Source of the DNA: an uncultured Verrucomicrobiota bacterium
GTDB taxonomy: Bacteria > Verrucomicrobiota > Kiritimatiellia > JAAZAB01
Length of the DNA stretch: 64,000 bases
Assembly (NCBI GenBank): GCA_964463985.1
Contig: CAYXEK010000004.1
Coordinates: 18,820-82,819 of the forward strand
Reading direction: 5' to 3'
In this document: piece by piece, positions 2,094 through 17,141 of the stretch
How positions within the stretch are numbered: position 1 is the first letter of the stretch
How the letters are laid out: each line of letters starts with the position of its first letter
Position numbers and translations under genes: made by a program
Notes under the pieces: generated by a model
What the model saw: the letters and a program-made list of their open reading frames with translations, nothing else
Database searches by the model: none
Told to the model about the DNA's origin: nothing

Positions 2094-2136
2094 TTGACAA
2101 TCGCGTATTCGATAAATACATTCAACTATATTGAAT
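2094..2136 (+). promoter_or_regulatory. sigma70-type promoter with overlapping palindromic operator upstream of the IclR gene
   Basis: TTGACA (2094-2099), a 17-bp spacer, then TACATT (2117-2122). The palindrome ATTCAA-CTATA-TTGAAT at 2120-2136 overlaps the -10 and the predicted start site. Confidence 0.65.
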
Positions 2137-2155
2137 TTTTATTTGTTATTCTCGT

Positions 2156-3079
2156 ATGCTGGCAAGCACTAAATACGCCAATCAAGTCCGTCCGGAGCGC
2201 ACGCTGCAGTCGGTTTTGCGCGGTTTTCAAGTGCTGGAAATCGTGGCGGCCACCCATGGCGGCGCGGCGCTCAAGGATATTGCCGCACAGATGGGATTGA
2301 AGCCGCCCACCGCGCATATCCTTCTTAACACGCTGGTGGCGGGTGGATATCTGGCGCGCCGCCCGGGCGACATGCGCTACCGGCTGGGAGAAGCCTCGTT
2401 CCGGCTCACTGACCGCTACCTGGAAAACACACTGCGCCAGGGCGCCGAACAAGCCGTGCGCGCGGTGGCCGCCCAATTGCCCAAAGCCACGGTGATCTTT
2501 GTCGAACCCCGCGATTGCGATGTTTCCGTGTTGTTCCGGATGTCGCCCGACCGCCCCAGCATCATCCAGATGCCGCGCGAACGCCGCATGGCGCCATACC
2601 AGAGCGCCAGTGCGTTGGCCTGTCTGGCATTCCTGTCCCCTGAAGAACAACTGGCATTCCGGCAGCGCCATGATTTTCTGGAAGACGGCAAATCCGCTTG
2701 GGGTAGCGAAAAAAAACTAGAAGCATTTTTGAATAAATCACGCCGGCTGGGCTATGTTCTGCTGAATTTCTCCCGCAGCGGAGTGCGCGCCATGGCCGCG
2801 CCGGTTTTCAACCGCCGCGGCCAGTTGGCCGCCGCGCTGGGCGCCAGCATGCCCCCGGTTGATTTTAGCGCCATGGAAAAGCAAATTATTGAAATCGTAA
2901 CGGCCGCGGCCCGCAAGTTATCAGCGCCGGATTTTAACATACAATCCGCCGGGGTTTCCCCGAACCGAATTCAACACACAGACACGGAAGGGAAAGGACA
3001 TGACAGCATCGCAAAAATACGGAACGATCATCACCGGCATCATGAACAACATCCTGGAGCAGGAAGCCGGCCATATTGA
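2156..3079 (+). CDS. IclR family transcriptional regulator
   Basis: N-terminal HTH (QSVLRGFQVLE...LKDIAAQMGLKPPTAHILLNTL...GY...YRLG) and C-terminal effector domain (RRLGY...GVRAMAAPVFNRRGQLAAAL). An ~50-aa tail overlaps the next gene by 80 nt. Confidence 0.9.
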   Translation: MLASTKYANQVRPERTLQSVLRGFQVLEIVAATHGGAALKDIAAQMGLKPPTAHILLNTLVAGGYLARRPGDMRYRLGEASFRLTDRYLENTLRQGAEQAVRAVAAQLPKATVIFVEPRDCDVSVLFRMSPDRPSIIQMPRERRMAPYQSASALACLAFLSPEEQLAFRQRHDFLEDGKSAWGSEKKLEAFLNKSRRLGYVLLNFSRSGVRAMAAPVFNRRGQLAAALGASMPPVDFSAMEKQIIEIVTAAARKLSAPDFNIQSAGVSPNRIQHTDTEGKGHDSIAKIRNDHHRHHEQHPGAGSRPY

Positions 3080-3755
3080 CAAGGCCGCCGAACTGCTCGC
3101 CGGTTGCTATGCCGAGGACCGCCTGATCCACGTCTTCGGCGCGGGCGGCCACTCGGCCATCGGCGCGATGGAAATCTTCTGGCGCGCCGGCGGCCTGACC
3201 AAAATCAACGCCATGTTCCCGGTCGGCACAAACATCATCACCGCCAATCCAACCACCGCCAAAGTCACCGGACTGGCCCCGTTCATTCTGAACTATTACG
3301 AGGTCAAACCGGGCGATCCGCTGATTCTGGTCAACTTTTACGGACTGAACCCGGTCGCTGTGGACGTGGCGATCGCGGCGCACGAGCGCGGTGTCAAACT
3401 CGTCACCGTCAATTCGCATAAATTCGCCGCCACAGTGCCGGAGGACTTTAAATGGCGCCACCCATCCAAAAAAAACATTCATGACTTCGCCGACGTGGCG
3501 GTGGATAATCATGTCCCCTATCCTGACGCCGTTTTGCAGGTCCCGGGCGTGCCGGAACCGATCACACCCACGGCAACCATCGCTACCTGCTTTGCCTTGA
3601 ATTGCATCATGACCGAAACCATCGCCAAACTGCCGGGAAAGAACGTCAAGCCGGAAATATGGATCAGCAACAACATCCCCGGCTGCGACGAACACAATCA
3701 ACCCCTGGTGGAAAAATACCGGCATCGTATCCACCACCTGTATCCGGTGGTGTAA
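3000..3755 (+). CDS. SIS (sugar isomerase) domain protein, UPF0309-like
   Basis: IHVFGAGGHS...EIFWRAGGL, GDPLIL...GLN, DVAVDNHVPYPDA and TATIA motifs; GGA-rich RBS upstream. Confidence 0.85.
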   Translation: MTASQKYGTIITGIMNNILEQEAGHIDKAAELLAGCYAEDRLIHVFGAGGHSAIGAMEIFWRAGGLTKINAMFPVGTNIITANPTTAKVTGLAPFILNYYEVKPGDPLILVNFYGLNPVAVDVAIAAHERGVKLVTVNSHKFAATVPEDFKWRHPSKKNIHDFADVAVDNHVPYPDAVLQVPGVPEPITPTATIATCFALNCIMTETIAKLPGKNVKPEIWISNNIPGCDEHNQPLVEKYRHRIHHLYPVV

Positions 3756-3761
3756 CAAAAA

Positions 3762-3845
3762 GGGACAAAGGGGCAAAGGCACATAGTCACAAAGTCAGAT
3801 ATTAGCGGAGTTCCGGAATTCCGGCTTTGACACTTTGATCCTTTG
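3762..3845. repeat. imperfect palindrome built of 8-bp periodic units (xxCAAAGx / CTTTGxxx)
   Basis: Left arm gacaaagg ggcaaagg cacatagt cacaaagt; right arm ctttgaca ctttgatc ctttgagc. Confidence 0.65.
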
Positions 3846-3883
3846 AGCCTGTGCCACTTTCATCGGTAAATTGGAAAGGGGAA

Positions 3884-5044
3884 ATGAAAACCACAGAATT
3901 ACATGTGCCGGACCGTTACGCGATTGCCATCACATCCATCGCCCGGATCAAACGTAAAATTTATCTCGGTTTGACCGCCGGCGCCCGCTCGCTCGCCGTC
4001 TACGATATTGACCGGGAAGAAATCGGCATGGAGCCGGATATTTTCCCCTGGGTGGCCGGCCGGGGTTACTGCGCAAAAATTCATAATGCCATGGGCGCCT
4101 TGGATGACGGGACGTTGCTGCTGGGCGAAGGCAACCATTTTACCTGGGACGGCATCCCGGTCACGGTCAATTATTTCAACACCGAACTCCCGGAAAGCAT
4201 GCTCGGCCGCAAACGCGCGCAGGGTTTTCCCGACGTTAAATACACCGATTTCTGCCGTGAAAACCTGGACGGCTGGGATCGCACCGCAACCGATCCGGGC
4301 GGCAAAATCCTGCGTTACGATCCCGCCACCCAAAAGGCGGAATTGGTCGGCGAACTGCCAGAATTCCTGTATGCCCAATCCATGGTGGTGGACGCCAAAC
4401 GGCTGCGCGCTTTCGGGCATACCCTGCCGGACAATAATTTCTTTTACGTGGATGTCAGCCAAAAAACCATCCATAATTTCGGCCATATATCCGATTTCGC
4501 CCATCACAACATGGTGATCACCCCGGCCGGCGTCTGTTACGGCGGCTGGATTGACCGGGCCAACGGCTCTTTAAAACTCCTGAAATTCGACCCGGAAAAA
4601 CAACGGCTGGAATATCTGGACAAGGTGATCCTGCGCGACCCGGGCGCCAAGGTGGCCGGCAATCAGGGCATTGACTCCTGGATCGTCACCCGTGCGGGAG
4701 AAATTTTCATGGGTGCGGTCGCCAATTCCCTGCTGTTCCGATTCGATCCGGATACGGAAGAGTTTGAACTGATCGCCCAACTGGCCAAGGGCGGCCGGAT
4801 AACCTCGATGGACGAGGACGAAAACGGAATCATCTGGATTGGCGCGGATTATCCGCACATGCGCCTGATCCGGTTCGATCCGAAGTCCGGCGGCAAAAAC
4901 CGGGTCATAGATTGCGGCCGGGTGAACGACTCCTACCCCCGCTGCTATTTCCATGCCTCATGTTATTTCGAAGGCAAATTGTACCTGGGCGAAACCGACG
5001 GCTTTTCACCCTCATTGCACATTGTTGATTTGAATAAAATGTAG
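3884..5044 (+). CDS. hypothetical beta-propeller-like protein
   Basis: 386 aa with recurring blade-like motifs (LYLG, FDPE/YDP, GIIWIG, GKLYLG). No signal peptide evident. Confidence 0.7.
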   Translation: MKTTELHVPDRYAIAITSIARIKRKIYLGLTAGARSLAVYDIDREEIGMEPDIFPWVAGRGYCAKIHNAMGALDDGTLLLGEGNHFTWDGIPVTVNYFNTELPESMLGRKRAQGFPDVKYTDFCRENLDGWDRTATDPGGKILRYDPATQKAELVGELPEFLYAQSMVVDAKRLRAFGHTLPDNNFFYVDVSQKTIHNFGHISDFAHHNMVITPAGVCYGGWIDRANGSLKLLKFDPEKQRLEYLDKVILRDPGAKVAGNQGIDSWIVTRAGEIFMGAVANSLLFRFDPDTEEFELIAQLAKGGRITSMDEDENGIIWIGADYPHMRLIRFDPKSGGKNRVIDCGRVNDSYPRCYFHASCYFEGKLYLGETDGFSPSLHIVDLNKM

Positions 5045-5062
5045 TTCGATTAAAAACAATTC

Positions 5063-5150
5063 TCTCACAAAGCCACAAAGACACCAAGATGAACGAAAAC
5101 GAAATAGGGACAATTATAGTTTGCCTCCGTGCCTTTGTGGCTTTGTGAGA
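5063..5150. repeat. perfect 18-bp inverted repeat with 8-bp periodic arms
   Basis: TCTCACAAAGCCACAAAG (5063-5080) and CTTTGTGGCTTTGTGAGA (5133-5150). Confidence 0.9.
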
Positions 5151-5190
5151 AATTTTTCCGAAATTCCGACAACAGGTGAGTGGCAAACAT

Positions 5191-7995
5191 ATGCAACCAG
5201 AGGCAAGTTGTTTTGACCAGCCGGCGGCGCCTGATGCGGGAACACCAATCTCGTTTCGACCACTGGGCGCACCGGCCGATCCGGATCCGGCGCCGGTATA
5301 TTGGATGGCGCGCCGTTTTTTCACCCTGCCGGCAAAGCCGGTCAACGCACCCCTCGCAATCGCGGCTGACCGGCATTACGAAGTCTTCCTGAATCAGACG
5401 CAAGTGGCAACCTGCCGCAATTATTTCAGCGGCGACCGGTATCTCTGGCTCCAACGCCATGCCGGTAAGGATTTGCCGGTCGCCGCAATCGCCGGCAAAA
5501 ATGTCCTTGAAATCCTGGTTCGGTCAGACCCGCAGGCAAACAAGAACCATGTCCAATTCCATCCCATGCTCTGGTGCCATCTGCGTCTGGAAACGCCGGC
5601 CGGAACGATTGACGTGGCCACCGATAGCGATTGGGAAGTCGCCGCTATTTCCGGCTGGCGAACTTTACGCGCCTGCCAACTGACCATCGCTTACGAAACC
5701 TTGACCATCCAGCCGGCCGGCCGGTGCGGTGTGCGGGGCATTCCCAGCTTCCTGGAATACGGCCCCCCGGCGCTGCTGGACCCTCGCCAACTGCCGCCGA
5801 TTTACGAATGGACCGACACGCCGAAACGCGTTGACATTCACCATCCTGCAGCCGTAACCGCTGCGGGCACATGGACCGGTTCTTCGGAAAGCCTCTGTTT
5901 CAACCTGCATGATTTGTTCGGCGCCGGAGACGCCGGCGGCGCCGGCGTTGTTTTGCGTGCGGAGTTCAACGCGCCACGCGAACAGGATATCTGGATCGCG
6001 GCTTCGGGATTCTGCGACTGTGCCGTTGAGCTTAACAACTTTCAAATCTGCGCGCGCAACAACCTGCCGGGACCGGATTTAATGCGCCAGAAGAATTTTT
6101 TGGCGCCGCCCTGCCGCTGCCGCGTCCGGCGGGGGGCCAATGAAATTGCCGTGCGGTTCGGCAACGATCACCGGCGGTTCCTGGCCTGGCAGGCGCGCCT
6201 GGCGCAGCAACCGCTGGCGGCGGGGTTGTGGTTTCGGCTCCAAATTCAGGGGATTTCTTCGGCGGATTGGCGCTGGCTTAACAATGCCGGATCCGCCGTA
6301 AAACCGGTTCCCTGCCAGGGCAACCTGGAAGACATCCTGGGCGCCAAGGCCGCCAGTATGCCGCTGCCCGCCCTGACCGTCGGAAGCACTCCGGCCAAGT
6401 TCACCCTCCGCGGCTTGCGCGCCGGGGAAAAACCATTTGTCCTGCTCGACTTCAACGGCATCAAAAAAGGGCAACTTTCTTTCACCATCCAGGCGGACGC
6501 GCCCGGGCGGATTTATCTCGCCTACGGGTTCCTCGCCGAACAGGGTTCGGTGGATTGCGGACGCAACGGCAAAAAGGCTGTGGATATCATCAATGTCCCC
6601 GCCGGCTATTCGGAATACGAGGCGTTTGAAGACCGTACTTTCGTTTATCTGGACATGGCGTTCGAAAATTTCACGGGGTCGCTGGCCATCAACGACATTG
6701 CCCTCGCCGAACGCGTTTTTCTCGATGAGCAACGGACGCAATTCCAGTCACCCGACTCAACGCTGCCGGCTGTCTGGCGGGCATCGCTCCGCACCGCTCA
6801 AATCTGCTGCGATGAAATTTACATGGATAATGCCGAGCGAGAGCATTGCCAATGGCTCTGCAGCGCGCCGCCCAATATCGCCGCCGGCTATTACGCCTTC
6901 GGCGGTGAAATGCCCAAGGCCGCCAAAGTCCTGCTCGAATTCGCCCGGCACCAGCGTCCCAACGGAGAAATCCAGGGACATGCCCCGGGCAGGTGGGGCA
7001 ACCGGCCAATGTACCAGTGCCACATGGGCCTGTACGTCCGGGCAGTCTGGCGCGACTACCACTACCGGGGCGACATGAACCTGCTGCGGCGCCTGATGCC
7101 GCATCTGCACAAACTGCTGGCCTTCTGGAAAACGCACCGCAATCCGCGTGGATTGCTGGAAAACATTGAGACGGTCTGGGTTGATTGGGGCCAGCATCTT
7201 TATTCCTACGCGCCCGGAGGCATTCCCGGCGCCCAAGGCGCCGGCGGCGTATTGACGGCCATGAACGCCTATTACCTCGGGGCATTGCGCATGTGCGCCG
7301 AACTGGCCCGCGCCCTCGGCGAAGACCGTACGGCGGAACGCTACGACGCCATGGCGGATGAAACGGCTGCCGCCATGGCGCGCCTGTTGTTTGACCGCGA
7401 TAAAAAACTTTTCCGCGACGGACTCAACAACCCGGCGGCGGAAAAGAATTATTCCCAGGCGGCCAATGCCGCCGCCGCGCTTTACGGCGCGCTGCCGCCG
7501 GCGGAAGGCGCGGCTGCCCTGCGCGCCGCCTTTGAAACCGCGCAGCCATGGACGGAAATCATTCCCGCCAGCCCGCACTTCGGGCTGCTGGCGGGCGAAG
7601 CCTTGTTTGAAGCTGGCTTGGACGCCCTGGCGTACGCCTGGATCGGCCGGCATGCGCATATGTTGCAAGCTCCCGCCGGCACGATCTGGGAAACCTGGTC
7701 GCCGCATGTCGCGCATTGCCAGGGCATCGGCTCGGCCATCGCCTATCACCTGGCGCGTTACCATGCCGGAATTTATCCCGCGCGGCCGGGTTTCGCCGCC
7801 ATCGGCATCCGCCCGCAGGCCTGCGGCCAGTCCTGGCTGCGGATGCGGATGCATACGCCATGGGGCGCGGTCGGCGCGGCCTGGCAGCACACGGCCCGCG
7901 GCTTCGATTATGAATTAACACTGCCGCCGGCGCTCCAGGGCCGGCCGCTGGAGATCGCTCCCGCGGTACATTTAACCATGTCGTCTTCCCATTAA
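5191..7995 (+). CDS. GH78 alpha-L-rhamnosidase-like glycoside hydrolase
   Basis: N-terminal AADRHYEVFLN domain, LDFNG..KG, MDNAEREHCQW (DxPxRER-like), YSQAANAAA, PASPHF, TIWETW, HCQG and GFAAIGIRP...TPWG C-terminus. ATG at 5191. Confidence 0.8.
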   Translation: MQPEASCFDQPAAPDAGTPISFRPLGAPADPDPAPVYWMARRFFTLPAKPVNAPLAIAADRHYEVFLNQTQVATCRNYFSGDRYLWLQRHAGKDLPVAAIAGKNVLEILVRSDPQANKNHVQFHPMLWCHLRLETPAGTIDVATDSDWEVAAISGWRTLRACQLTIAYETLTIQPAGRCGVRGIPSFLEYGPPALLDPRQLPPIYEWTDTPKRVDIHHPAAVTAAGTWTGSSESLCFNLHDLFGAGDAGGAGVVLRAEFNAPREQDIWIAASGFCDCAVELNNFQICARNNLPGPDLMRQKNFLAPPCRCRVRRGANEIAVRFGNDHRRFLAWQARLAQQPLAAGLWFRLQIQGISSADWRWLNNAGSAVKPVPCQGNLEDILGAKAASMPLPALTVGSTPAKFTLRGLRAGEKPFVLLDFNGIKKGQLSFTIQADAPGRIYLAYGFLAEQGSVDCGRNGKKAVDIINVPAGYSEYEAFEDRTFVYLDMAFENFTGSLAINDIALAERVFLDEQRTQFQSPDSTLPAVWRASLRTAQICCDEIYMDNAEREHCQWLCSAPPNIAAGYYAFGGEMPKAAKVLLEFARHQRPNGEIQGHAPGRWGNRPMYQCHMGLYVRAVWRDYHYRGDMNLLRRLMPHLHKLLAFWKTHRNPRGLLENIETVWVDWGQHLYSYAPGGIPGAQGAGGVLTAMNAYYLGALRMCAELARALGEDRTAERYDAMADETAAAMARLLFDRDKKLFRDGLNNPAAEKNYSQAANAAAALYGALPPAEGAAALRAAFETAQPWTEIIPASPHFGLLAGEALFEAGLDALAYAWIGRHAHMLQAPAGTIWETWSPHVAHCQGIGSAIAYHLARYHAGIYPARPGFAAIGIRPQACGQSWLRMRMHTPWGAVGAAWQHTARGFDYELTLPPALQGRPLEIAPAVHLTMSSSH

Positions 7996-8015
7996 CCGTA
8001 CACCGAGGAATCAGC

Positions 8016-9971
8016 ATGCAAGCCAGATTATTCGCCGCGCCCCAGGTGATGAACATGGGGTTCCATTACACCCTGCAATTCAGCCGCCGCACCCGCATCA
8101 ACGTCGTCGGCCTGGTAGATCAGAGCACGGATGAATGGAAAGAATGGTATTTGAAAACCCACCAGCCGCCGGCATTGCGCGAAATGGCCGATGCCGGTTA
8201 CACCCTGATCGAAATCCATTTCCTGTACGGGTTCGGCCTGGAAGGCGAGCGCGAGGAATGGGAACGCGCGCGCGATATGGCGCGCCATGCCCACGACGCC
8301 GGCCTCAAAGTGCAGGGGTATTTCCAGTTTTTCTCGGTGCAGCAGGAACTTTTTTTCCTGGAAAATCCATGGGCGAAAGACTGCATCCAGGTCAACGCCG
8401 AGGGTAAATCTATCCGCTTCCGTTACGACCGTCCGGCCCTATGCTTTACCAACGAACGCGTGCGCCGGTATTACCTGGACGGAGTTGAACTGGGCTTGAA
8501 AACCTGCGATCTGGACGGCATCCGGCTGGACAACGATTATTTCAAGGGCTGTTACTGCCCGAAATGCCAGGATGCGTTCCGCGCATGGCTGCGGGAAAAA
8601 TTCCCCGCGCCGGACGACGTCCGCCGGGTGTTCGGCCTGCCGACGACTGGCGGCATGGAACTGGCGCCGATCCCGATGCCGCGCGATCCGCTCTGGCACG
8701 CCACCGTGCTCTTCCGCCAGGAACAGCGCCAGCAGATGATGCGCCAGATATCCGAAAAAATCCGCGCCATCAAGCCGGACGCCATCCTCGGCGGCAACCC
8801 CGGCATCAACCGGCGCTTTGACGATGCTTACCGCATCCACATTTACACGCCCGACCTGGCCGAGACACATCACCTGGTCTGCGCGGAGAACATCCGCTAC
8901 CCCGCCCGCACCGGGGACACTTTCCGCCACCAGGCGCTGCTGTACAAGCATGGCCAGGCCGGCAACTTCGCCGTCTTTGCCAGCCATCACCTGCACAATG
9001 CGCAAGGCCGAATCCGCTGGCCGGAAACGCTGGAGGAATGCGCACTCTCGCTGTGCGAGGCGCTGGCCTTCGGCGGCCACCCCGTCTGCACCACCTGGGG
9101 TATCCGCATGGATGCCGGCGGCAAAATGCTCTATCAACGCCCGCTGTTCCGCCGGGCGCTGGACCCGGTTACAGCATTTCTGAAAGAACACGGCAATATT
9201 TACCGCGGCGCAAAGTGCAACGCGGCCGTCGGTGTTTACCAGAACCGGGAAAGCCTTTGCGGCGATTCGCCCAACTCGTGGCTTTCATTGCAAGGCGCCT
9301 TACAGGTGCTGCTCCAGCGCCAGATTCCGTTCCGCTTGGCGGATCGCGACCTGGACGAGCTGCTGGAAGGCATAAAACTGCTGATCGTGCCGGACATGCA
9401 GCTTATCAGCGATGCGCAAATGGACCGCCTGCATGAATTTGCCGGCGGCGGCGGCAAACTGCTCTGGACCGGTCAAGCCGGCCGGTTTGACGACTGGCGT
9501 TTGAAACGCGATGCCGGCCGGCTGGAACTCTGGCTCGGCCATGCCAACATCGCGCGGCTGCCGGAAGCGCCGGAAAAAATCTCGCCGGCCTCCGAGCATG
9601 AAAACGACCGGCAATTTGCAGGGGATGCGGGCAACGCCTGGTACATGAACCTGCCCATGCCCGCCGGCGCGGAAGATTTTGCCGCGGCCGTCCGCCAACT
9701 GGCCCCGGCGCCCGCGGTCACTGTCAGCGGATCGCCCTTTGTCGCCGTGGATACATTTGTCAATGACCAAGGCGAAAATTTTGCCCACCTGCTGAATTAC
9801 GACAATGCCCGGCCGTGCGATCTGACGATTGAGATTGCCGGCGCCGCCCGCGCGGAATGCCTGATGCCGGCTGGTCTCGGGACGCAAAGCACCCCGGAAA
9901 TACGTTCGACAAACCAAAACACAACCATCGGGCTGAAAGGATTGCACACCTACTGCGTTATTAAATATTGA
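8016..9971 (+). CDS. GH42-like / GHL6-like TIM-barrel protein with class-I GATase-like (trimerization) domain
   Basis: CFTNERVRRYY...LDGIRLDNDY..GCYCPKCQDAFRAWL, VCAEN, and C-terminal LLIVPDMQLISD...GGKLLWTG. Confidence 0.65.
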   Translation: MQARLFAAPQVMNMGFHYTLQFSRRTRINVVGLVDQSTDEWKEWYLKTHQPPALREMADAGYTLIEIHFLYGFGLEGEREEWERARDMARHAHDAGLKVQGYFQFFSVQQELFFLENPWAKDCIQVNAEGKSIRFRYDRPALCFTNERVRRYYLDGVELGLKTCDLDGIRLDNDYFKGCYCPKCQDAFRAWLREKFPAPDDVRRVFGLPTTGGMELAPIPMPRDPLWHATVLFRQEQRQQMMRQISEKIRAIKPDAILGGNPGINRRFDDAYRIHIYTPDLAETHHLVCAENIRYPARTGDTFRHQALLYKHGQAGNFAVFASHHLHNAQGRIRWPETLEECALSLCEALAFGGHPVCTTWGIRMDAGGKMLYQRPLFRRALDPVTAFLKEHGNIYRGAKCNAAVGVYQNRESLCGDSPNSWLSLQGALQVLLQRQIPFRLADRDLDELLEGIKLLIVPDMQLISDAQMDRLHEFAGGGGKLLWTGQAGRFDDWRLKRDAGRLELWLGHANIARLPEAPEKISPASEHENDRQFAGDAGNAWYMNLPMPAGAEDFAAAVRQLAPAPAVTVSGSPFVAVDTFVNDQGENFAHLLNYDNARPCDLTIEIAGAARAECLMPAGLGTQSTPEIRSTNQNTTIGLKGLHTYCVIKY

Positions 9972-10145
9972 TGGCGCCGCATCCGTTCACATTCACGGCG
10001 CATGTGAAATGATGCGTGCTTTTAGTATCAACCGGATGGTCTTTGACAGCCGCGCCCGCGTGGCGCGGACTTTCCGGAACAGAGGTTACCCCCCCCCGCT
10101 GCCATAAAAACAACAGCGGAGAACCAAGCACAGGAGCAAGAATAG

Positions 10146-11216
10146 ATGCAAGCGACGCAACATCAAACATCCAATACCAACGCGCAATCCCGCGCGGACA
10201 CCACCCGCGAGATCAAGAAACTCGCCAAATCGCTCGGCGCCGACCTGGTCGGCATCGCCTCGATGGACCGCTTTGACGGCGCGCCGATCCAGATGGACCC
10301 CCGCTACATCATGCCGGAGGCCAAGTCCTGCATCGTGGTCGGGTTCCGCGTCCTGCGCGGCTCGCTGCGCGGCATTGAAGAGGGCACATTCTTCAGCAAT
10401 TATTCCTCCATGGGCTATGGCGGCATAACTTATATCTTTATGCCGATCACCGTCATGAACCTCGCGCGCCACATTGAAGACATGGGGTACGAGGCTTTCC
10501 CGATGGGACATCAAAGCGACTGGCGCGCGATTGACAATGAAGGCCGGATGCGCGCCGGCTTCAGCAAGCCGGTGGCCCCCGGCAAGCCGGCGCCGGACAT
10601 CATGGTGCACCTGCGCCTGGCGGCCTTCGCCGCCGGCCTGGGAGAAATCGGCTGGAGCAAAATGCTGATCACGCCGGAATTCGGTCCGGCCGTGCGCGTC
10701 GGCCTGGTGTTGACCGAGTTGGAACTCGATCCCGACCCGCTTTACAGCGGCCCCAGGCTCTGCAACAAATGCATGGCCTGCGTCCGCGCCTGCCCGGGAA
10801 AGGCCATCAGCGCCGACAAAAGCATCAAGGTGACAGTAGCCGGCCAGGCGCTGGAATGGGCGGAAATAGACATGGACGCCTGCGATGTTGCCTTCCGCGG
10901 CGCCGATGAAATCAAAAATGGGCCAGGCAAAGGCTATTACATTGAAGGATTTGACAGTTTCCGTCCGAATCATGTCTCGCCGTTTTATAACGCGCCGCCC
11001 AAACTTTACAATGCCGGCAAGGCAATCGGCGGCGCCGACGGTTGCATCAGGGCCTGTCTGGCCAGCCTGGAAGCGCGCGACCTGTTGACGCATAAATTCA
11101 AACAGAAGTTCCGCCGGCGCAAACCGTGGACCGTGGACTGGTCGCATTATGAAGAAGAAATCGCCCATGCGCCATCGGGCACCATCGGCATCAACACCCG
11201 CCTGGACACGGATTAA
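10146..11216 (+). CDS. QueG / reductive-dehalogenase-like cobalamin-binding Fe-S protein
   Basis: KLAKSLGADLVGIA...P.YIMPEAKSCIV; RLAAFAAGLGEIGWSKMLITPEFGPAVR..LVLT; CNKCMACVRACP; later DAC and GCIRAC. No Tat leader. Confidence 0.8.
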   Translation: MQATQHQTSNTNAQSRADTTREIKKLAKSLGADLVGIASMDRFDGAPIQMDPRYIMPEAKSCIVVGFRVLRGSLRGIEEGTFFSNYSSMGYGGITYIFMPITVMNLARHIEDMGYEAFPMGHQSDWRAIDNEGRMRAGFSKPVAPGKPAPDIMVHLRLAAFAAGLGEIGWSKMLITPEFGPAVRVGLVLTELELDPDPLYSGPRLCNKCMACVRACPGKAISADKSIKVTVAGQALEWAEIDMDACDVAFRGADEIKNGPGKGYYIEGFDSFRPNHVSPFYNAPPKLYNAGKAIGGADGCIRACLASLEARDLLTHKFKQKFRRRKPWTVDWSHYEEEIAHAPSGTIGINTRLDTD

Positions 11217-11325
11217 ATGGAGAAAGGCACATAAGAAGAAAGGAACAAAGAGGCAGAGCCGGAAAATTCTCCGCGAAAGGACACAAGGATCGCAAAGAAA
11301 AAGAATTTCCGGCAGAACCAAATGT

Positions 11326-11529
11326 TTCTCACAAAGACACCAAGACACAAAGGGCGAACGGATTTACAGATGCTGAAGGAAAACATGTCGCTATGCGGCA
11401 GTTCCGTTAAACGGAACCCCGTTCTTGGAAACAGCACAAAGCAAAAACCGTTTTGCGATTTGCCCTGTTTCCAAGAACGGTCATGTTTTCCTGCTGGTTC
11501 TTTCTTGGTGGCTTTGTGACTTTGCGGGA
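11326..11529. repeat. third 8-bp periodic imperfect palindrome in the same gene cluster
   Basis: TTCTCACAAAGACACCAAGACACAAAG (11326-11352) versus CTTGGTGGCTTTGTGACTTTGCGGGAA (about 11504-11530). It shares TCTCACAAAG with the element at 5063. Confidence 0.7.
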
Positions 11530-11705
11530 AAATATTCCGGATTCCGAAAGTTTGCCCATTGCGCGGGCACGCGGCTTTGCCGGATTCGTGTGATTCACGG
11601 TTAGAAAATCCGGGGCAGCTTTCCCTTTTTAATATGGTTTTTGCAATCTTTTGTGGATAATTTATTCCGACTTGGGTTGCGGTAAGCGCCCGTATTGGTA
11701 AAATA

Positions 11706-13721
11706 ATGAATACAAAACTCAAAAAACATTTCGGATCGAAACCAATCGTATGGGTGGCCGCCTGGGGCATATCCAAACTGCGCAAGCGCGGCGGACAGTT
11801 TGCCGGTTCGATCAACGGCGCGGCCGTCTGGTATGATGACTGGTATGACCGGGTCATGTCGAAGGAAACCGCCGTCAAGCTGGCGGAACTGGGAGTCAAC
11901 TTGATCATCCTGCCGTTTTCCGTGGGCGGCAGCGCGCGCATGGAACAAGCGGAACGCGACGATTTCGAACGCATGACCCGTACGCTGCACAAGTGCGGCA
12001 TAATCTCGCTGCCTTACCTGCAATACCAGAACATACTGCAGGAAGATTTCACCTTCAAAGACACGGTCTGGGGGGTCAGACTCGACGGCAGCCGCAAGCA
12101 ATTCGCTTACTGGCGGCGCACGGTCTGCCAATCCTCCCCGGCATTCCGCGAATATTTCAAGGGATTGATATCCGACGCCCTGCGGCGCGGCGCCGACGGC
12201 ATCTGGATTGACAATACCCACCGTGTCCCCTGCCGGTGCGACCTGTGCATCCGGCGCTTCAAACAATGGCTATATGCTAACCGGCGCGAATTGCTGGCCG
12301 AACTCCGCCTTGAGAATTTTGACCGGATTGAAATGCCGCCATTCGCCGGCGGCGCCGATCCTATCACCCAGGCCCTGCTGGACTTTAATTGCAGGGCGAA
12401 TCTGGACATTTTGTCCGAATTTAAAAATCACATGCTGTCAATCAAGCCGGACGCCCTGTTCGCATCCAATCCCGGCATCGGCCGCGGCAGCAGCAATTAC
12501 GACCGCGGCATTGATCTGCGGCCGTTGCTGGAACTGCACGACCTGATGTATCTGGAAAACAAATTTTTTCCAAGTGTTGCCGACGGCCAGACCACCGGTA
12601 ATTTCCACGGATTCATCAGTTGCGAGGCTGCCGGCTCAATGGGCATTCCCGGCGCATGGAAACGGCATGATTTTGACGATACGGCCTCAAAAACCGCCAC
12701 CGGCATGCCGGAAACCGAGCCGGAAATCCGGCGGGTGATCTTTGAAGCCGCCGCCTGCGGCGGCGCGCCGGGCATGCTCTGGGCCATCCGCACCCGGCCG
12801 GAACACATGTGCGACAAGCCCGCCGACCTGCTGACCATGTATTTCGAGCATCCGCTGATTTATTCCGGCATGAAAAAGGCCCTGGACTTTGTCCGCTCCC
12901 TGCCGGTATTCGGCGATTCCCGCAACATCGCCAACATCGCCGTGCTGCATCACCGCGCCAGCCTGGCCTTTGACCCGCAAAACGCCTGGCCGGCCATGCA
13001 TACCGCGGAAGAGTTTTTACACAACGCCGGATTGCCTTACAACGTTTTGTATTCCGAAGATTGCGCCGCCCAAGCTGGCGGGTACAAAGCGATCATCCTT
13101 GCCGGCGTCAGCGCGATGAGCCAGCAGGACGCGGATGCCCTGAAAGGTTACGTTGAACGCGGCGGACGGCTGCTGGTCCTGGGCGATTGCGGACTTTACG
13201 ACGAACGCCGGCATGAGCGTACCGAATTCATCCTGCGGGATGTTTTGGGCGCCAGCCGCTTCCGGCGCGTCCAGGAATTTATTTTCAACCGCTACGGCGC
13301 GGGCATCTGCGCGACCCTGCCCATGGCTGGCGTATCTGATAAAATGCTCAACAACATCATGCAAGCCGAACCCAGGAATTATCTGCCTGCCTGGCATATC
13401 CGCCGTTCCGAGGTTATGCATGCGCTCGATGCGTTGCTGGGCGGCGACCGGCAAATCCGGATGACTGACATGGCGAATGTCGCGGTTACTCTGCGCCGGA
13501 CGGAGTCCGGCGCAACCGCCGCGCATTTCGTGGCATACGCTCCTTGCCCCGACGCGCAGGCATTGACCATCCAAATCCATTGCAGTTTGGCGCACGCGAA
13601 ACAAGCCGTTTGGCATACGCCGGGAGCCGGGGCGCAGCCGGCGGAACATGGCGCCGGGGCGGCGGGTTATAACTCATACCGCCTGCCGGGCTTGATTGAT
13701 TACGGCGTGTTGATCATATAG
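11706..13721 (+). CDS. second GH42-like / GHL6-like protein (architecture paralog of 8016-9971)
   Basis: CQSSPAFREY...ADGIWIDNTH..PCRCDLCIRRFKQWL, MYLEN, and AIILAGVSAMS...YVERGGRLLVLG. Confidence 0.65.
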   Translation: MNTKLKKHFGSKPIVWVAAWGISKLRKRGGQFAGSINGAAVWYDDWYDRVMSKETAVKLAELGVNLIILPFSVGGSARMEQAERDDFERMTRTLHKCGIISLPYLQYQNILQEDFTFKDTVWGVRLDGSRKQFAYWRRTVCQSSPAFREYFKGLISDALRRGADGIWIDNTHRVPCRCDLCIRRFKQWLYANRRELLAELRLENFDRIEMPPFAGGADPITQALLDFNCRANLDILSEFKNHMLSIKPDALFASNPGIGRGSSNYDRGIDLRPLLELHDLMYLENKFFPSVADGQTTGNFHGFISCEAAGSMGIPGAWKRHDFDDTASKTATGMPETEPEIRRVIFEAAACGGAPGMLWAIRTRPEHMCDKPADLLTMYFEHPLIYSGMKKALDFVRSLPVFGDSRNIANIAVLHHRASLAFDPQNAWPAMHTAEEFLHNAGLPYNVLYSEDCAAQAGGYKAIILAGVSAMSQQDADALKGYVERGGRLLVLGDCGLYDERRHERTEFILRDVLGASRFRRVQEFIFNRYGAGICATLPMAGVSDKMLNNIMQAEPRNYLPAWHIRRSEVMHALDALLGGDRQIRMTDMANVAVTLRRTESGATAAHFVAYAPCPDAQALTIQIHCSLAHAKQAVWHTPGAGAQPAEHGAGAAGYNSYRLPGLIDYGVLII

Positions 13722-13838
13722 CGCCGCGATCATCAACCGGATATTCCGGTTGAAAGCGCGGACTGCCCGCCAGGACCGGGGCTATGCGATTATAACCGGG
13801 GATTGACCTAAGCGCAACGTTTTGGCACACTGCCGGCC

Positions 13839-14744
13839 ATGAAGACCGCGGCGCCATTGATCAGCATCGGACTGGCTGCAATCATCCTGCTGGCGGGATG
13901 CGTCCGCCCAACGGATGTCATTGATGTCTCGGCCTACGACTACCGGGACACCAGGAACCTGGTGCGCATGGTGGCCGACGCCGCCCGCCTGCTTGAAGGC
14001 GAGGGCTTGCCCGCCCTCGATAGTTTACGGGAGCGCTGCTCCCCTTCCGGCGAATATTATCTTTACGTTTACGATGCGGAAGATATCTGCCTCTACCATG
14101 CGGGCATGCCGGAACTGGTCAATCAATGCCTGGCGGACATCAAGGATATTGACGGGAAATCCATTTCACGCCTGATCCGGGAAGCCCTGAACAACCCCGA
14201 TAATCCGCACGGCTGGGTACATTACACCTGGTGGGAACCGGGAAAATTTTACCCGGTGCCGAAGTCCTCCTGCCACTTCCGGATTCGCCTGCCCGACGGA
14301 CGTAAAATCTACGTCGGCGGAGGATTGAACCATCCGCACGAGGAACGCGAATTCATCCGCATTTCGGTTGACAGCGCTGCCAGGCTGATCCAGGCCCGGG
14401 GCGCGGACGCCCTGCCGGCCATCGCCGATCCGCTGGCCTCCTACAATTTCCGCGACGTGCGGGTGTTCGCGTTCCGCGAAGACGGGCGCATGCTGATTTC
14501 TCCGGTGCTGGGCGACAACCGGATCGGGCTGGATTTGCGCCGGTGCGTGGATGCCGCCGGCAACCGCCCCTTCGACCGCGCGCTGAGTTTGCTGGAAACG
14601 CAGGCCTCCGTCTGGCAGGCATTCATTGACTACAGCCGGGACGAACGCCAACCCGTGAAGAAAACTCTGTATATACGGCGCACCGTCTTGAATAATGAGC
14701 CGGTTTATCTGGGCGCCATAACGGATCTGCCCCATCCGCCTTGA
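13839..14744 (+). CDS. lipoprotein consisting of two tandem sCache_2-like domains, with no TM or signalling output
   Basis: Lipobox LAGC. Domain 1: YYLYVYD...LYH...D.DGK...GWVHYTW.EPG...PK. Domain 2: VFAFREDG...D.AGN...KK.LY. The protein ends right after domain 2. Confidence 0.75.
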   Translation: MKTAAPLISIGLAAIILLAGCVRPTDVIDVSAYDYRDTRNLVRMVADAARLLEGEGLPALDSLRERCSPSGEYYLYVYDAEDICLYHAGMPELVNQCLADIKDIDGKSISRLIREALNNPDNPHGWVHYTWWEPGKFYPVPKSSCHFRIRLPDGRKIYVGGGLNHPHEEREFIRISVDSAARLIQARGADALPAIADPLASYNFRDVRVFAFREDGRMLISPVLGDNRIGLDLRRCVDAAGNRPFDRALSLLETQASVWQAFIDYSRDERQPVKKTLYIRRTVLNNEPVYLGAITDLPHPP

Positions 14745-14831
14745 TGCCCATCGGGCGGTGTCCGTCAAAAACATTGAATCGCCAGGTTGTGATGAACGCA
14801 AGCTGAGCAAACAGGGCGCAGGCACAGGAAT

Positions 14832-16202
14832 ATGCAAACCAAATACGAATACGGCGTCAATGAAGTGCCGCCTTTCCCGCATCTGATTGCTTTATCATTG
14901 CAGCATGTGATGCTGATGTTTGTTTCGCTTTCCCTGCCCGTGATTTTCGCCGCGCAGATCAACGCCTCGCTGGAGGTTACCGCCGCGCTGGTGGCGTTTT
15001 CCATGCTGGCGGGCGGCATCGGCTCAATTATGCAAGCCGTTAAATGGCCGTTTTTGGGATCGGGCTACCTCTGTCCCAATGTTTGCGGACCGTCCTATTT
15101 CAGCCTGTCATTATCAGCAGCCTGGACCGGCGGCATGCCGCTCATGCGCGGGATGACCATCCTGGCCGGGCTGGTGGAAGTGGTCATGGCGCCCATCGTC
15201 CAGAAATTAAAACATGTCTTTCCCAACTACATCGTCGGCCTGGTGGTGGCTTTGGTGGGCGTAAGCGTGATCACGCCGTCGGTAACTTCGCTGTTCGGCC
15301 TGGCATACCGCGGCGATGCGCTGGTGGTGGCCGACGGGCTGGTGGGATTCGCCACGCTGGCGGTGATGGTGCTTTGCAACGTCTGGGGAAAGGGCCCGGT
15401 GAAAGTGTACAGCCTGCTGATCGGCATGCTGGCCGGCTGGTTGGCGGCCTTGTGCGTCTCCCCGGAAAGCCGCTTGGCCCTGCATGCCTTGCACGGCACG
15501 GCCTGGGCGGCGCTGCCAAGCATGCCGTGGAAGCTCTGGGACCTGGCGTTCGACCCGCAACTGGCGCTGCCGTTCGTGGTCATCGGGATCAGCGGCTCGC
15601 TGAAGTCGTTCGGCAACCTGCTGGCCGCCCAACACATTTCGGAGCCGGAGTTAAAACGCCCGAATTTCAAGCCGCTGCGCAACGGCCTGATGGCGGACGG
15701 GCTTTCGACCATGCTGGCCGGCGCGCTCGGCGGAATGGCGGTGGACACATCCTCCAGCAATGTCGGCCTGGCGGCCTCCACCAAGGTGTTGAGCCGCTGG
15801 CTGAGCATGGCCGCCGGTGTAATCTTCATCCTGCTGGCCTTTTCACCGCGCCTGACAATATTTTTTTCGCTGATGCCGCAGCCGGTGCTGGGCGCATCCA
15901 TTATCTTCGCCGCCTGCTTCATGATCGTCATCGGCCTGCAACAGATGTTTGAAGAGCCATGGGAAACGCGCCGGACATTCGTGGTAGGCATATCGCTGTT
16001 TCTCGGACTGAGCACGGCTTTCCAACCGGGCTTGTACGCCCGGGCGCCTCACATCATCCAGGCCTTTTTCACTGATCCGCTGCCCACGGCCACGATCCTG
16101 GCCGTGGCGCTGCACCAACTGGTAAACCTGGACCGCACCGGCGCCGGTTTGGCGCGGCGCGCCGGATCGTTGCTCCGCCGCCAGCAAGATAAACGCCGAT
16201 AA
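14832..16202 (+). CDS. NCS2 (UraA/XanQ-type) permease with atypical binding site
   Basis: SLQHV in TM1, GLMADG in TM9, signature-like TSSSNVGLAASTK, P.PVLGA; highly hydrophobic, 456 aa. Confidence 0.85.
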   Translation: MQTKYEYGVNEVPPFPHLIALSLQHVMLMFVSLSLPVIFAAQINASLEVTAALVAFSMLAGGIGSIMQAVKWPFLGSGYLCPNVCGPSYFSLSLSAAWTGGMPLMRGMTILAGLVEVVMAPIVQKLKHVFPNYIVGLVVALVGVSVITPSVTSLFGLAYRGDALVVADGLVGFATLAVMVLCNVWGKGPVKVYSLLIGMLAGWLAALCVSPESRLALHALHGTAWAALPSMPWKLWDLAFDPQLALPFVVIGISGSLKSFGNLLAAQHISEPELKRPNFKPLRNGLMADGLSTMLAGALGGMAVDTSSSNVGLAASTKVLSRWLSMAAGVIFILLAFSPRLTIFFSLMPQPVLGASIIFAACFMIVIGLQQMFEEPWETRRTFVVGISLFLGLSTAFQPGLYARAPHIIQAFFTDPLPTATILAVALHQLVNLDRTGAGLARRAGSLLRRQQDKRR

Positions 16203-16207
16203 GAAGC

Positions 16208-17077: not shown

Positions 17078-17141
17078 ACCCTCATGGTGTTGCCACCGCT
17101 GGATTTTGAGTCCAGTGCGTCTGCCATTTCGCCACCCCGGC
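17056..17141 (-). tRNA. tRNA-Leu (anticodon CAA)
   Basis: The reverse complement reads GCCGGGG TGGCGAAATGGCAGACGCA CTGGA CTCAAAA TCCAG, a long variable arm, GAGGG TTCAACT CCCTC, CTCCGGC ACCA. The acceptor stem pairs and CCA is encoded. Confidence 0.97.

Follow-up and report, generated by a model that had tools for sequence, protein, structure and literature searches.

An unstudied RdhA/QueG-superfamily protein in a putative IclR-controlled glycoside block of a Kiritimatiellia genome

The window, a 64,000-nucleotide stretch of contig CAYXEK010000004.1 from an uncultured member of the Kiritimatiellia (GCA_964463985.1), carries a block of co-oriented genes in which a predicted corrinoid/Fe-S-type protein of the RdhA/QueG superfamily (Rdh; P0001; positions 10146-11216, plus strand) is encoded among proteins of the glycoside hydrolase (GH) type. 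On balance, and with modest confidence, we favor the reading that this is an IclR-controlled cytoplasmic block acting on a glycoside or oligosaccharide, extending from about 2094 to 17077 and comprised of two modules, in which Rdh and a U32-like protein would provide a reductive step. This reading is built on the observed gene content, fold assignments, co-conservation and a common promoter/operator. The initial annotation, which proposed an intracellular pathway that strips sugars from a modified glycoside and includes a B12-type reductase, is partly supported: Rdh is not QueG, is conserved together with a GH-type gene and has a cytoplasmic setting, whereas the proposed gene combination and the sugar stripping need correcting.

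All seven ORFs described previously between 2156 and 13721 are present on the plus strand in the same orientation. The first encodes an IclR-family regulator (2156-3079) with matches to Pfam HTH_IclR and IclR_C, both above their cut-offs; its homology stops near 2953, and the final ~40 codons, which overlap the start of the next gene, are unconserved. That gene encodes a UPF0309-type SIS-domain protein (SIS_2; 3000-3755; NCBIfam NF002805, 206 bits, cut-off 135), which is probably an isomerase acting on a phosphosugar or an enzyme of the dehydratase type. It resembles the GlcNAc-6-phosphate dehydratase NagS (SCO4393; PDB 9eol, E = 9e-29) in consisting of a SIS domain along its whole length and in its NCBIfam subfamily; however, NagS homologs from outside the Streptomycetaceae (26-36% identity) are reported to lack GlcNAc-6P dehydration activity (PMC12680351), so that GlcNAc-6P cannot be assumed as the substrate of the window protein. 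The beta-propeller protein (3851-5044), with a weak Kelch_6 match and no PDB sequence match, belongs to a small family of ~110 members; because the homologs are 386 aa long, its true start is probably at 3884. It is followed by a GH78-like six-hairpin glycosidase of the alpha-L-rhamnosidase type (5176-7995; Bac_rhamnosid6H, 76.6 bits; Bac_rhamnosid_C, 27.3 bits), for which known enzymes such as RhaB (PDB 2okx, E = 1.6e-20) are only distant relatives and whose orthologs were found only in three related loci (L005-L007). Two GH42-fold proteins, “a” (8016-9971) and “b” (11706-13721), are encoded on either side of Rdh.

None of the seven proteins possesses an N-terminal hydrophobic segment, an RR motif or a Tat leader, with the adjoining Cache lipoprotein as a positive control; the reported absence of signal peptides is thus confirmed, and the cytoplasmic location proposed for the block proteins and their pathway is supported by these predictions. 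Likewise, no transporter gene lies within 2156-13721, as had been noted, although a Cache lipoprotein and NCS2-type permease pair (13839-16202, plus strand) is located directly downstream, between “b” and an amidohydrolase gene. This pair occupies the same position in L006 and is missing there in L005 and L007. The amidohydrolase is an Amidohydro_2 protein of the lactonase/decarboxylase metal hydrolase type (16208-17077, plus strand; PF04909, 104 bits), and its gene is bounded by a tRNA on the minus strand (17059-17141). Since an Amidohydro_2 gene follows the block in each of the three related loci, and in L005 lies directly 3′ of “b” without the intervening pair, the block end originally placed at 13721 is probably too early; the amidohydrolase gene is probably the last gene of the block, with the Cache/NCS2 pair inserted before it.

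At the head of the block, a promoter scan identified a promoter-like site, TTGACA-17-TACATT, with an overlapping palindrome (2094-2136, plus strand). The palindrome, ATTCAA-N5-TTGAAT (2120-2136), is a candidate IclR operator that occurs only once in the window and is found again 20 nt 5′ of the IclR start at all three related loci (L005-L007); approximately 80 nt around the promoter and palindrome are conserved, and the sequence farther upstream diverges in L005 and L007. One conserved promoter with its palindrome stands at the head of each of the four Kiritimatiellia loci, an arrangement from which we infer co-transcription of the block genes. The gap between “a” and the Rdh start is ~24 nt in L007 and is filled in L006 by a URO-D-like gene that overlaps the Rdh start. 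Spacers of 174 nt and 489 nt with stable hairpins separate Rdh from its neighbors in the window, in view of which the block genes may belong to separate transcripts.

The complete seven-gene order was found in only four closely related Kiritimatiellia genomes (the window, L005, L006 and L007), with 77-96% protein identity for most of the genes, so that the shared gene order may be of recent origin and not a result of selection. The combination noted earlier, restricted to these relatives, joins two modules that are found apart in other genomes. Module A consists of the propeller and “a”, between which the window has the GH78-like gene, with the UPF0309 SIS gene in front; module B consists of IclR, Rdh and “b”. 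A propeller and “a”-type pair is present in L116 and L117, accompanied by GH20 genes, and in L036; “a” is 46-47% identical to the gene 3′ of the propeller in L116 and L117, and L036 (Clostridiaceae) encodes a propeller, a GH42-fold protein, Rdh and a U32-like protein consecutively. In many PVC loci, IclR genes of one cluster (c4) lie immediately 5′ of Rdh.

The two GH42-fold proteins depart from the enzymes they resemble. Protein “a” gives borderline matches to Pfam GH42, GH42M and GHL10, whereas “b” has no Pfam GH42 match and only a weak one to GLMA_2nd. The predicted model of “b” (pLDDT 88.6, pTM 0.92) nevertheless superposes on the GH42/GH151/GH164 fold with TM scores of 0.60-0.68, and it matches the three-domain architecture of GH42 beta-galactosidases/alpha-L-arabinopyranosidases (PDB 3tts, 5xb7 and 4oif), GH151 and GH164, although its identity to these structures is just 11-16%. 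Common to “b” and GH42 and its relatives are a Zn-type cysteine cluster and an invariant Glu on the presumed nucleophile strand (C141, C176, C178, C181 and E284, all invariant). By contrast, the canonical acid/base Glu of the GH42 N-E motif is missing from both proteins, being replaced by Asp in “a” (DND) and by Thr in “b” (DNT); relatives have Asn or Ser there. Thus, the sugar stripping proposed earlier is not assured for “a” and “b”.

The family of “b” is narrow (~65 unnamed proteins), and most of its members adjoin Rdh. Among 17 complete loci of the PVC/Spirochaete clade, defined as those in which Rdh has 2.5 kb or more of sequence on either side, “b” lies within two genes of Rdh in 15, with a median gap of 22 nt. 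In a phylogenetic tree, the window Rdh falls inside a supported clade of 21 rows, 18 of which have a GH42-fold gene adjoining Rdh. Across 401 genomes of the phylum, and ignoring kinship, an ortholog of “b” was found in all seven genomes with an Rdh of at least 70% identity and in 1 of the 394 genomes without one, where it lies at a contig edge. The suggestion that Rdh is co-conserved with the GH genes consequently holds for “b”.

The most constant partner of Rdh is a Cys-rich, distantly U32-like protein encoded outside the window. Of 28 complete clostridial loci, 24 have its gene next to Rdh (median gap 2 nt), and the protein is present in 36/36 of the 401 genomes in which Rdh occurs at 50% identity or more, kinship again being ignored. 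The genome under study encodes an intact copy with all eight invariant cysteines (G000:C22:24009-25136), unlinked to Rdh and located among housekeeping genes on another contig; as read from the translations only, it adjoins a TrmH-type methyltransferase-like ORF and an aspartyl-tRNA synthetase. The protein resembles the U32 Fe-S proteins UbiU/UbiV, RlhA and TrhP weakly through PF01136 (20.4 bits, below the cut-off of 22.4) and has no PDB sequence match; it differs from them in an extra C-terminal CxxxCxxCxxC motif. An invariant C-x3-C and further cysteines suggest that it binds an Fe-S cluster, and Rdh most likely works with this protein supplied in trans. A feasible model may be that a modified glycoside, once imported, is trimmed by the GH-type proteins, that a sugar-derived moiety is delivered or released by “b”, and that Rdh and its U32-like partner would then carry out a two-electron reduction of this moiety with loss of a leaving group, namely a reductive cleavage, at a C-O or C-X bond, of the type performed by QueG and RdhA.

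Rdh and the U32-like protein might instead form a pair of enzymes that is complete in itself and acts on a small metabolite other than a glycoside. The GH neighborhood would then reflect shared regulation or hitch-hiking in glycan-rich genomes, with no substrate passed to Rdh by the GH42-fold proteins; we regard this as a serious alternative, albeit an unlikely one. It would account for the fact that the constant partner family-wide is the U32-like gene and no GH gene: most members of the Rdh family are clostridial and lack a GH42-fold neighbor, which was found in just 1 of 28 complete Bacillota loci. Moreover, the orthologs of “b” in L120 and L121 have no Rdh within 10 kb, the ortholog in L122 is accompanied by the U32-like gene only, and the neighbors past the Rdh core vary (GH35, GH28, GH20, sulfatases, ulvan lyase and esterases). 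On the other hand, these neighbors are nearly all carbohydrate-active and the regulators at Rdh loci are of the AraC, IclR and LacI types. The coupling of Rdh and “b” is also tight in the PVC group, where the two genes are -1 to 75 nt apart in twelve loci, and they are jointly present in the seven genomes mentioned above, and distant GH42-fold paralogs likewise lie near Rdh or U32-like paralogs (G328:C3, G353:C11, G194:C80 and G019:C15).

Within the corrinoid/iron-sulfur (RdhA/QueG) fold, Rdh represents an unstudied, highly conserved branch, on which no papers were found in the literature. Its profile matches PceA (8q4h) with E = 2e-15, and the best 46 Foldseek matches of its predicted model are all RdhA or QueG, although the model is of moderate quality (pLDDT 73; TM 0.43-0.49 to known structures). 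Rdh shares with RdhA (PceA, 4uqu/8q4h; NpRdhA, 4ras/6zxu) the predicted corrinoid-binding core fold and a ferredoxin-type module with one Fer4 motif; a conserved segment, AGLGE(I)G...PEFGP...R, can be aligned with the core of PceA, and the catalytic pair Tyr246/Arg305 of PceA aligns with Y96 (78/79 family members) and R184 (79/79). The window protein retains seven of the eight family cluster cysteines and has Gly295 where 77/79 members have Cys. We infer corrinoid binding by Rdh, as well as the substrate and reaction of the above model. The genome, which is 92% complete, encodes QueG and three PF02310 B12-binding proteins, in keeping with corrinoid use; against it, no CobS, CbiC or B12 riboswitch was found.

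Conservation of the Tyr/Arg pair and the PceA- and NpRdhA-type top profile and fold matches would fit a catabolic cytoplasmic dehalogenase like NpRdhA or BhbA that acts on a halogenated glycoside or aglycone, as would the lack of a Tat leader and of RdhB, which is shared with catabolic RdhAs; like Rdh, NpRdhA is cytoplasmic. Such a function is nevertheless improbable. Rdh scores only 61.4 bits against TIGR02486 (cut-off 160.35). It also differs from RdhA in that it is shorter (~350 aa) than the matched RdhA PDB chains (464-725 aa), lacks a fused reductase and carries ~45 residues inserted within its second cluster motif. RdhAs are normally very divergent, whereas more than 3000 Rdh homologs are 60-83% identical across Kiritimatiellia, Lentisphaerota, Planctomycetota, Spirochaetota and Bacillota. 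The family is frequent in MAGs from the rumen, gut, digesters and groundwater, where organohalogens are scarce, and, to our knowledge, no known dehalogenase has an obligate U32-like partner or the sugar-type regulators of these glycan loci.

The earlier annotation would fail if Rdh were the genuine tRNA epoxyqueuosine reductase of the genome, which is not so: Rdh gives 38.5-41.7 bits against TIGR00276 (cut-off 200), whereas a true QueG on another contig (G000:C84:14489-15412) gives 224.8 bits. With QueG (PDB 5d6s and 5d08), Rdh has in common its superfamily, size range, cytoplasmic location and two Fe-S motifs. Rdh might be a QueG paralog that serves as a second enzyme of RNA modification, perhaps together with the U32-like protein in the manner of RlhA or TrhP; this is highly improbable, even though characterized U32 proteins include RNA hydroxylases and the U32-like gene lies beside the RNA-related ORFs described above, since a complete QueG is present, Rdh has no QueG-specific Pfam domain, its genes are under AraC or IclR control within glycan loci, and its patchy spread (36/401 genomes at 50% identity or more) is unlike that of a housekeeping modification enzyme.

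Some structural features of the intergenic DNA may be added. In the 489-nt spacer downstream of Rdh (11217-11705; fold z = -6.2), a strong hairpin (11419-11480) is accompanied by other stems. Neither a credible ORF, RdhB-like or otherwise, nor an Rfam match was found in this spacer. A long hairpin of CACAAAG-type 8-bp periods (5058-5155; fold z = -5.3), which is not followed by a U-tract, lies between the propeller and GH78-like genes, and units related to these repeats are located at 3759-3802 and 11215-11353.

The block at 2156-13721 comprises seven co-oriented genes, all of which are present where the initial annotation had placed them. It begins with an IclR regulator gene (2156-3079) containing both family domains (HTH_IclR, 49.6 bits against a cut-off of 22; IclR_C, 49.6 against 24), followed by genes for a UPF0309-type SIS protein (3000-3755; NF002805, 206 bits against a cut-off of 135), a propeller with only a weak Kelch motif (3851-5044), a GH78-like six-hairpin protein (5176-7995), the GH42-fold protein 'a' (8016-9971), the RdhA/QueG-superfamily protein Rdh (P0001; 10146-11216) and the GH42-fold protein 'b' (11706-13721), all on the forward strand. 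All seven proteins lack both a hydrophobic N-terminus and an RR motif, with the adjoining Cache lipoprotein serving as a positive control, which bears out the claim that signal peptides are absent. The IclR reading frame is about 40 codons longer at its 3' end (2954-3079) than its homologues, and its last 80 nt overlap the start of the SIS gene; in three closely related Kiritimatiellia loci with the same block (L005-L007), these two genes lie 9-380 nt apart. Downstream, 'b' is directly followed by a co-oriented Cache lipoprotein and NCS2 permease pair (13839-16202) and then by an Amidohydro_2 gene (16208-17077; PF04909, 104 bits). The pair is absent from L005, in which the Amidohydro_2 gene comes immediately after 'b'. 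Since this gene trails 'b' in all three related loci, the block probably ends at 17077, where a tRNA gene on the reverse strand (17059-17141) bounds it and housekeeping genes lie beyond. Upstream, the block abuts an AT-richer segment (1-2000; GC 0.44 versus about 0.6) that contains a PD-(D/E)XK nuclease gene (44-1231); given this flank and the tRNA boundary, the block may belong to a variable or island-like part of the genome.

The head of the block has a sigma-70-like promoter (2094-2122) and, overlapping it, the palindrome ATTCAA-N5-TTGAAT (2120-2136), which occurs only once in the window. In each of the four Kiritimatiellia loci, this palindrome is found 20 nt upstream of the IclR start, within about 80 conserved bases; the sequence farther upstream diverges in L005 and L007. 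No second copy of this palindrome was found ahead of Rdh or 'b'. The spacers flanking Rdh in the window measure 174 and 489 nt. In L007, the gap from 'a' to Rdh is only about 24 nt, and in L006 a URO-D-like gene occupies the gap between the two and overlaps the Rdh start. Because of the conserved promoter and palindrome, the short gap in L007 and the overlap in L006, we favor the view that the block is one operon, whose genes would be co-transcribed. Intrinsic terminators are not in excess (28 sites versus 22 ± 4 in shuffled sequence), and none between the genes is convincing. An Rfam scan detected no riboswitch in the block, the cobalamin riboswitch included, and matched the tRNA at 17059-17141; a marginal match, M23 (7452-7500), is regarded as chance. 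The spacer ahead of Rdh also contains an inverted repeat, TTCACAT-N9-ATGTGAA (9986-10008), present just once in the window (0 expected); a weak promoter-like site overlaps it. Three spacers (3759-3802, 5058-5155, 11215-11353 and 11419-11540) share CACAAAG/CTTTGTG palindromic units with an 8-bp period, which form long hairpins (z = -5.3 and -6.2) lacking a U-tract and may represent a REP-like element family or structures that process or stabilize mRNA.

The explanation that we consider the most probable, and somewhat more likely than not, is that the block is an IclR-controlled cytoplasmic unit for glycoside processing, in which Rdh and an unlinked U32-like partner reductively cleave a sugar-derived moiety handled by 'b'. 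The block would act as a single unit under IclR control, 'b' would handle the moiety on which Rdh acts, and Rdh together with the U32-like Fe-S protein would carry out a two-electron reductive cleavage. The neighborhood of Rdh was surveyed in 80 fetched genome loci encoding its relatives, in which open reading frames were selected with a GC3-weighted picker and all proteins were clustered; loci with at least 2.5 kb on both sides of Rdh were classed as complete. A GH42-fold gene (cluster c3) is located no more than two genes from Rdh in 15 of the 17 complete loci of the PVC/Spirochaete clade, so that the proposed co-conservation of Rdh with a glycoside hydrolase gene holds. The gap between the two genes ranges from -79 to 75 nt in Lentisphaerota and from 252 to 509 nt in the four Kiritimatiellia loci. 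In a maximum-likelihood tree, the window Rdh falls inside a supported clade of 21 rows (100/89), 18 of which have a GH42-fold gene adjoining Rdh, with the Kiritimatiellia sequences grouped next to one from Victivallales. In many PVC loci, Rdh is directly preceded by an IclR gene from the cluster that includes the window regulator, which here heads the whole block. A MAG of Victivallis vadensis (L026) has 'b', Rdh, the U32-like gene and IclR as consecutive genes. Only in the window and its close relatives L005-L007 do the SIS, propeller, GH78-like and 'a' genes occur alongside Rdh.

This association was also visible at the genome level. Among 401 genomes drawn evenly from the phylum and searched for orthologues of 'b', Rdh and the U32-like protein, 'b'-type orthologues (E < 1e-100) were found in eight and Rdh orthologues (at least 70% identity) in seven, all of which are among those eight (Fisher p 3e-14, uncorrected for phylogeny). 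The eighth 'b' gene, in the genome without such an Rdh, begins at a contig edge. With the window's own genome excluded, Rdh adjoins 'b' in five of the six genomes that have both; in the sixth (G166), the genes are divergent and 1.6 kb apart. A check from the side of 'b' in four further metagenomic contigs found Rdh adjacent in one (L123), the U32-like gene alone adjacent in another (L122), and neither within 10 kb in the remaining two (L120 and L121). Thus, the link from 'b' to Rdh is strong, not absolute.

The main rival explanation, to which we give a distinctly smaller share of belief, is that Rdh and the U32-like protein form a system of their own, which simply happens to be encoded in glycan loci. 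The U32-like protein (cluster c2) is about 340 aa in length, has eight invariant cysteines, a C-terminal CxxxCxxCxxC motif and a sub-threshold Peptidase_U32 match; a sequence search of the PDB gave no useful match. Its gene is directly 3' of Rdh in 24 of 28 complete Bacillota-type loci, with a median gap of 2 nt and usually a divergent AraC gene upstream, and it is present in all 36 sampled genomes with an Rdh of at least 50% identity, versus 55 of the 365 others. The two genes are on separate contigs in the window's own genome and in its congener G221. The copy in the own genome (contig C22, 24009-25136) is intact and beside an HTH/PTS-EIIA-type regulator gene; other neighbors resemble a TrmH-type methyltransferase and an aspartyl-tRNA synthetase, judging from a reading of their translations only. 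Clostridial loci additionally contain GH35, GH28, pairs of Gfo/Idh/MocA and AP_endonuc_2 genes, a small ferredoxin, S9-type esterases, sulfatases and an ulvan lyase, which are no more than hints to the substrate of Rdh. In three Lentisphaeria loci (L012, L013 and L016), an arylamine N-acetyltransferase-family gene (PF00797, 154 bits) adjoins the U32-like gene as a recurrent neighbor, divergent from the IclR-Rdh-GH42-fold operon.

Rdh belongs to the superfamily but falls short of what defines either of its named families. It scores 61.4 bits on the RdhA model TIGR02486 (cut-off 160.35) and 38.5-41.7 bits on the QueG model TIGR00276 (cut-off 200), and both models match residues 159-227 only. Its 356 residues include no Tat leader, RR motif, hydrophobic N-terminus, fused reductase or extra domain, and no RdhB-like small membrane ORF is present in either flank; the 489-nt spacer, searched for an RdhB anchor or a decayed gene, contains no credible ORF. 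Respiratory RdhA proteins have a Tat signal and an RdhB anchor and self-sufficient catabolic RdhA proteins have a fused reductase, whereas Rdh has neither set. Organohalide reduction by Rdh is improbable in our estimate, even though a profile of 23 Rdh homologues is closest to PceA-type RdhA (E 2e-15), followed by NpRdhA (9e-9) and QueG (3e-6). By HMMER alignment, Tyr246 and Arg305 of PceA correspond to Y96 (kept in 78 of 79) and R184 (79 of 79) of the Rdh family. RNA modification by Rdh is more improbable still: the genome has a separate QueG (contig C84, 14489-15412), which scores 224.8 bits on TIGR00276, and Rdh is thus distinct from it, as the initial interpretation requires. The AlphaFold model of Rdh is of moderate confidence (pLDDT 73), and its top 46 PDB matches (Foldseek) are all RdhA or QueG with a TM-score of only 0.43-0.49, followed by MMACHC; all of the matched proteins are corrinoid-binding. 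Rdh has more than 3000 homologues, with 60-83% identity across Kiritimatiellia, Lentisphaerota, Planctomycetota, Spirochaetota and Bacillota, which are mostly unnamed or else labeled "ferredoxin" or "4Fe-4S binding protein"; literature searches turned up no publication on them.

Eight cysteines are conserved in the Rdh family. The window protein has a complete first motif, CxxCxxCxxxCP, whereas its second motif is interrupted by about 45 residues and retains three of the four family cysteines. Codon 295 (about 11028-11030) is GGC (Gly), one base different from the Cys found in 77 of 79 relatives, including a same-genus orthologue, at the position of the eighth presumed Fe-S ligand. Gly295 may be a true variant, leaving a cluster with only three Cys ligands, or an assembly error. 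Elsewhere in the genome (contig C215, 67-3158), two Rdh-like paralogues (287 and 370 aa; 41-46% identical to Rdh) are arranged in tandem behind a second IclR gene; many genomes of the phylum have the same tandem pair, with no U32-like gene beside it.

The own genome (92% complete) encodes QueG and three PF02310 B12-binding proteins, and no CobS, CbiC or cobalamin riboswitch was found in it; the organism looks like a corrinoid user that depends on cofactor import. A URO-D-like gene (PF01208, E 4e-12; 8805-9938 in L006) directly precedes Rdh in L005 and L006 and prompted corrinoid methyl transfer as a candidate activity, which was rejected. The gene is missing from the window block, L007 and other loci, and therefore is not part of the core. 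About nine URO-D-like paralogues are present in the own genome, two of them near PF02310 B12-binding proteins (contigs C7 and C65).

The GH42-fold proteins themselves are atypical. Protein 'a' has borderline GH42, GH42M and GHL10 matches (PF02449, 21.6 bits against a cut-off of 21, spanning 82 residues only), and 'b', with almost no Pfam signal, has no PF02449 match in the Pfam scan. The confident model of 'b' (pLDDT 88.6, pTM 0.92) best matches GH42 (E 4e-22), GH151 and GH164 structures (TM 0.60-0.68), and 'b' is thus predicted to have the GH42 architecture of a TIM barrel, a trimerization-type domain and a beta-sandwich. A Zn-type Cys cluster is invariant in the family, as is E284 (L-E-N or A-E-N) in 22 sequences, the equivalence of which to the GH42 nucleophile is by motif position only. 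In GH42 enzymes, the acid/base is the Glu of an N-E motif six residues ahead of the C-x-C-xx-C cluster. By contrast, profile alignment places WIDN-T/x-Y of the GH42-fold proteins opposite HVSN-E-Y of 4oif, with Thr at this position in 'b', Asp in 'a', N, S, T or D in relatives, and Glu in one sequence. Since both proteins lack this Glu, retaining hydrolysis of the usual kind should not be taken for granted; they may act on a substrate with a good leaving group, use a catalytic acid located elsewhere or have a role other than hydrolysis. Several DUF4838 proteins are encoded around GH42-fold 'b' genes (L120, L122, and cluster c9 in L011, L020 and L025), and one c9 protein, whose Q-N-D ... C-x-C-xx-C motif is like that of GH42-fold proteins, may be distantly related to them.

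It is also tempting to speculate, with less confidence than for the IclR-controlled glycoside block, that Rdh, its U32-like partner and, in PVC bacteria, the acid/base-less 'b' form a new multi-component cobalamin/Fe-S enzyme system acting on a carbohydrate-derived substrate, for example by reductive sugar deoxygenation, desulfonation or desulfation, or epoxide-to-alkene reduction. To our knowledge, the RdhA/QueG fold performs only two reactions, namely organohalide and epoxyqueuosine reduction; such a system would therefore represent a third functional branch and would give anaerobic glycan catabolism a reductive step not known before. The branch is very conserved and widespread, with many homologues in MAGs from rumen, gut, digesters and sediment, and is placed under sugar-type regulators within glycan loci. 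If its substrate is sugar-derived, a B12-dependent reductive step would be added to anaerobic polysaccharide breakdown, and corrinoid cross-feeding would be tied to glycan use, since the own genome appears unable to make corrinoids. The present locus is the most explicit link so far from Rdh to particular glycosidase-fold partners and narrows the search for its substrate.

Among the other block proteins, the GH78-like protein has both GH78 domains above the Pfam cut-offs (PF17389, 76.6 versus 24.5 bits; PF17390, 27.3 versus 22.1) and matches RhaB 2okx (E 1.6e-20), and scores 40.9 bits on the NCBIfam equivalog NF041573 (cut-off 1720). The SIS protein resembles NagS (PDB 9eol, E 9e-29) at the family level only; a role as a NagS-like GlcNAc-6P dehydratase was dropped because distant homologues, namely those outside Streptomycetaceae, do not dehydrate GlcNAc-6P (PMC12680351). 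The propeller is part of a small family, with about 110 members of 386 aa, of which one is annotated as a lactonase in one source and another as an NHL-repeat protein in a second source; a PDB sequence search gave no useful match for the propeller. In two Victivallales loci (L116 and L117), an 'a'-type gene (46-47% identical) directly follows the propeller gene alongside GH20 hexosaminidases and ABC transporters. In this light, the window block is a fusion of two modules that are separate elsewhere, propeller with 'a' and IclR with Rdh and 'b'. A Clostridiaceae locus (L036) has in one row an esterase, a Gfo/Idh/MocA oxidoreductase, a propeller (60% identical), a GH42-fold gene, Rdh and the U32-like gene.
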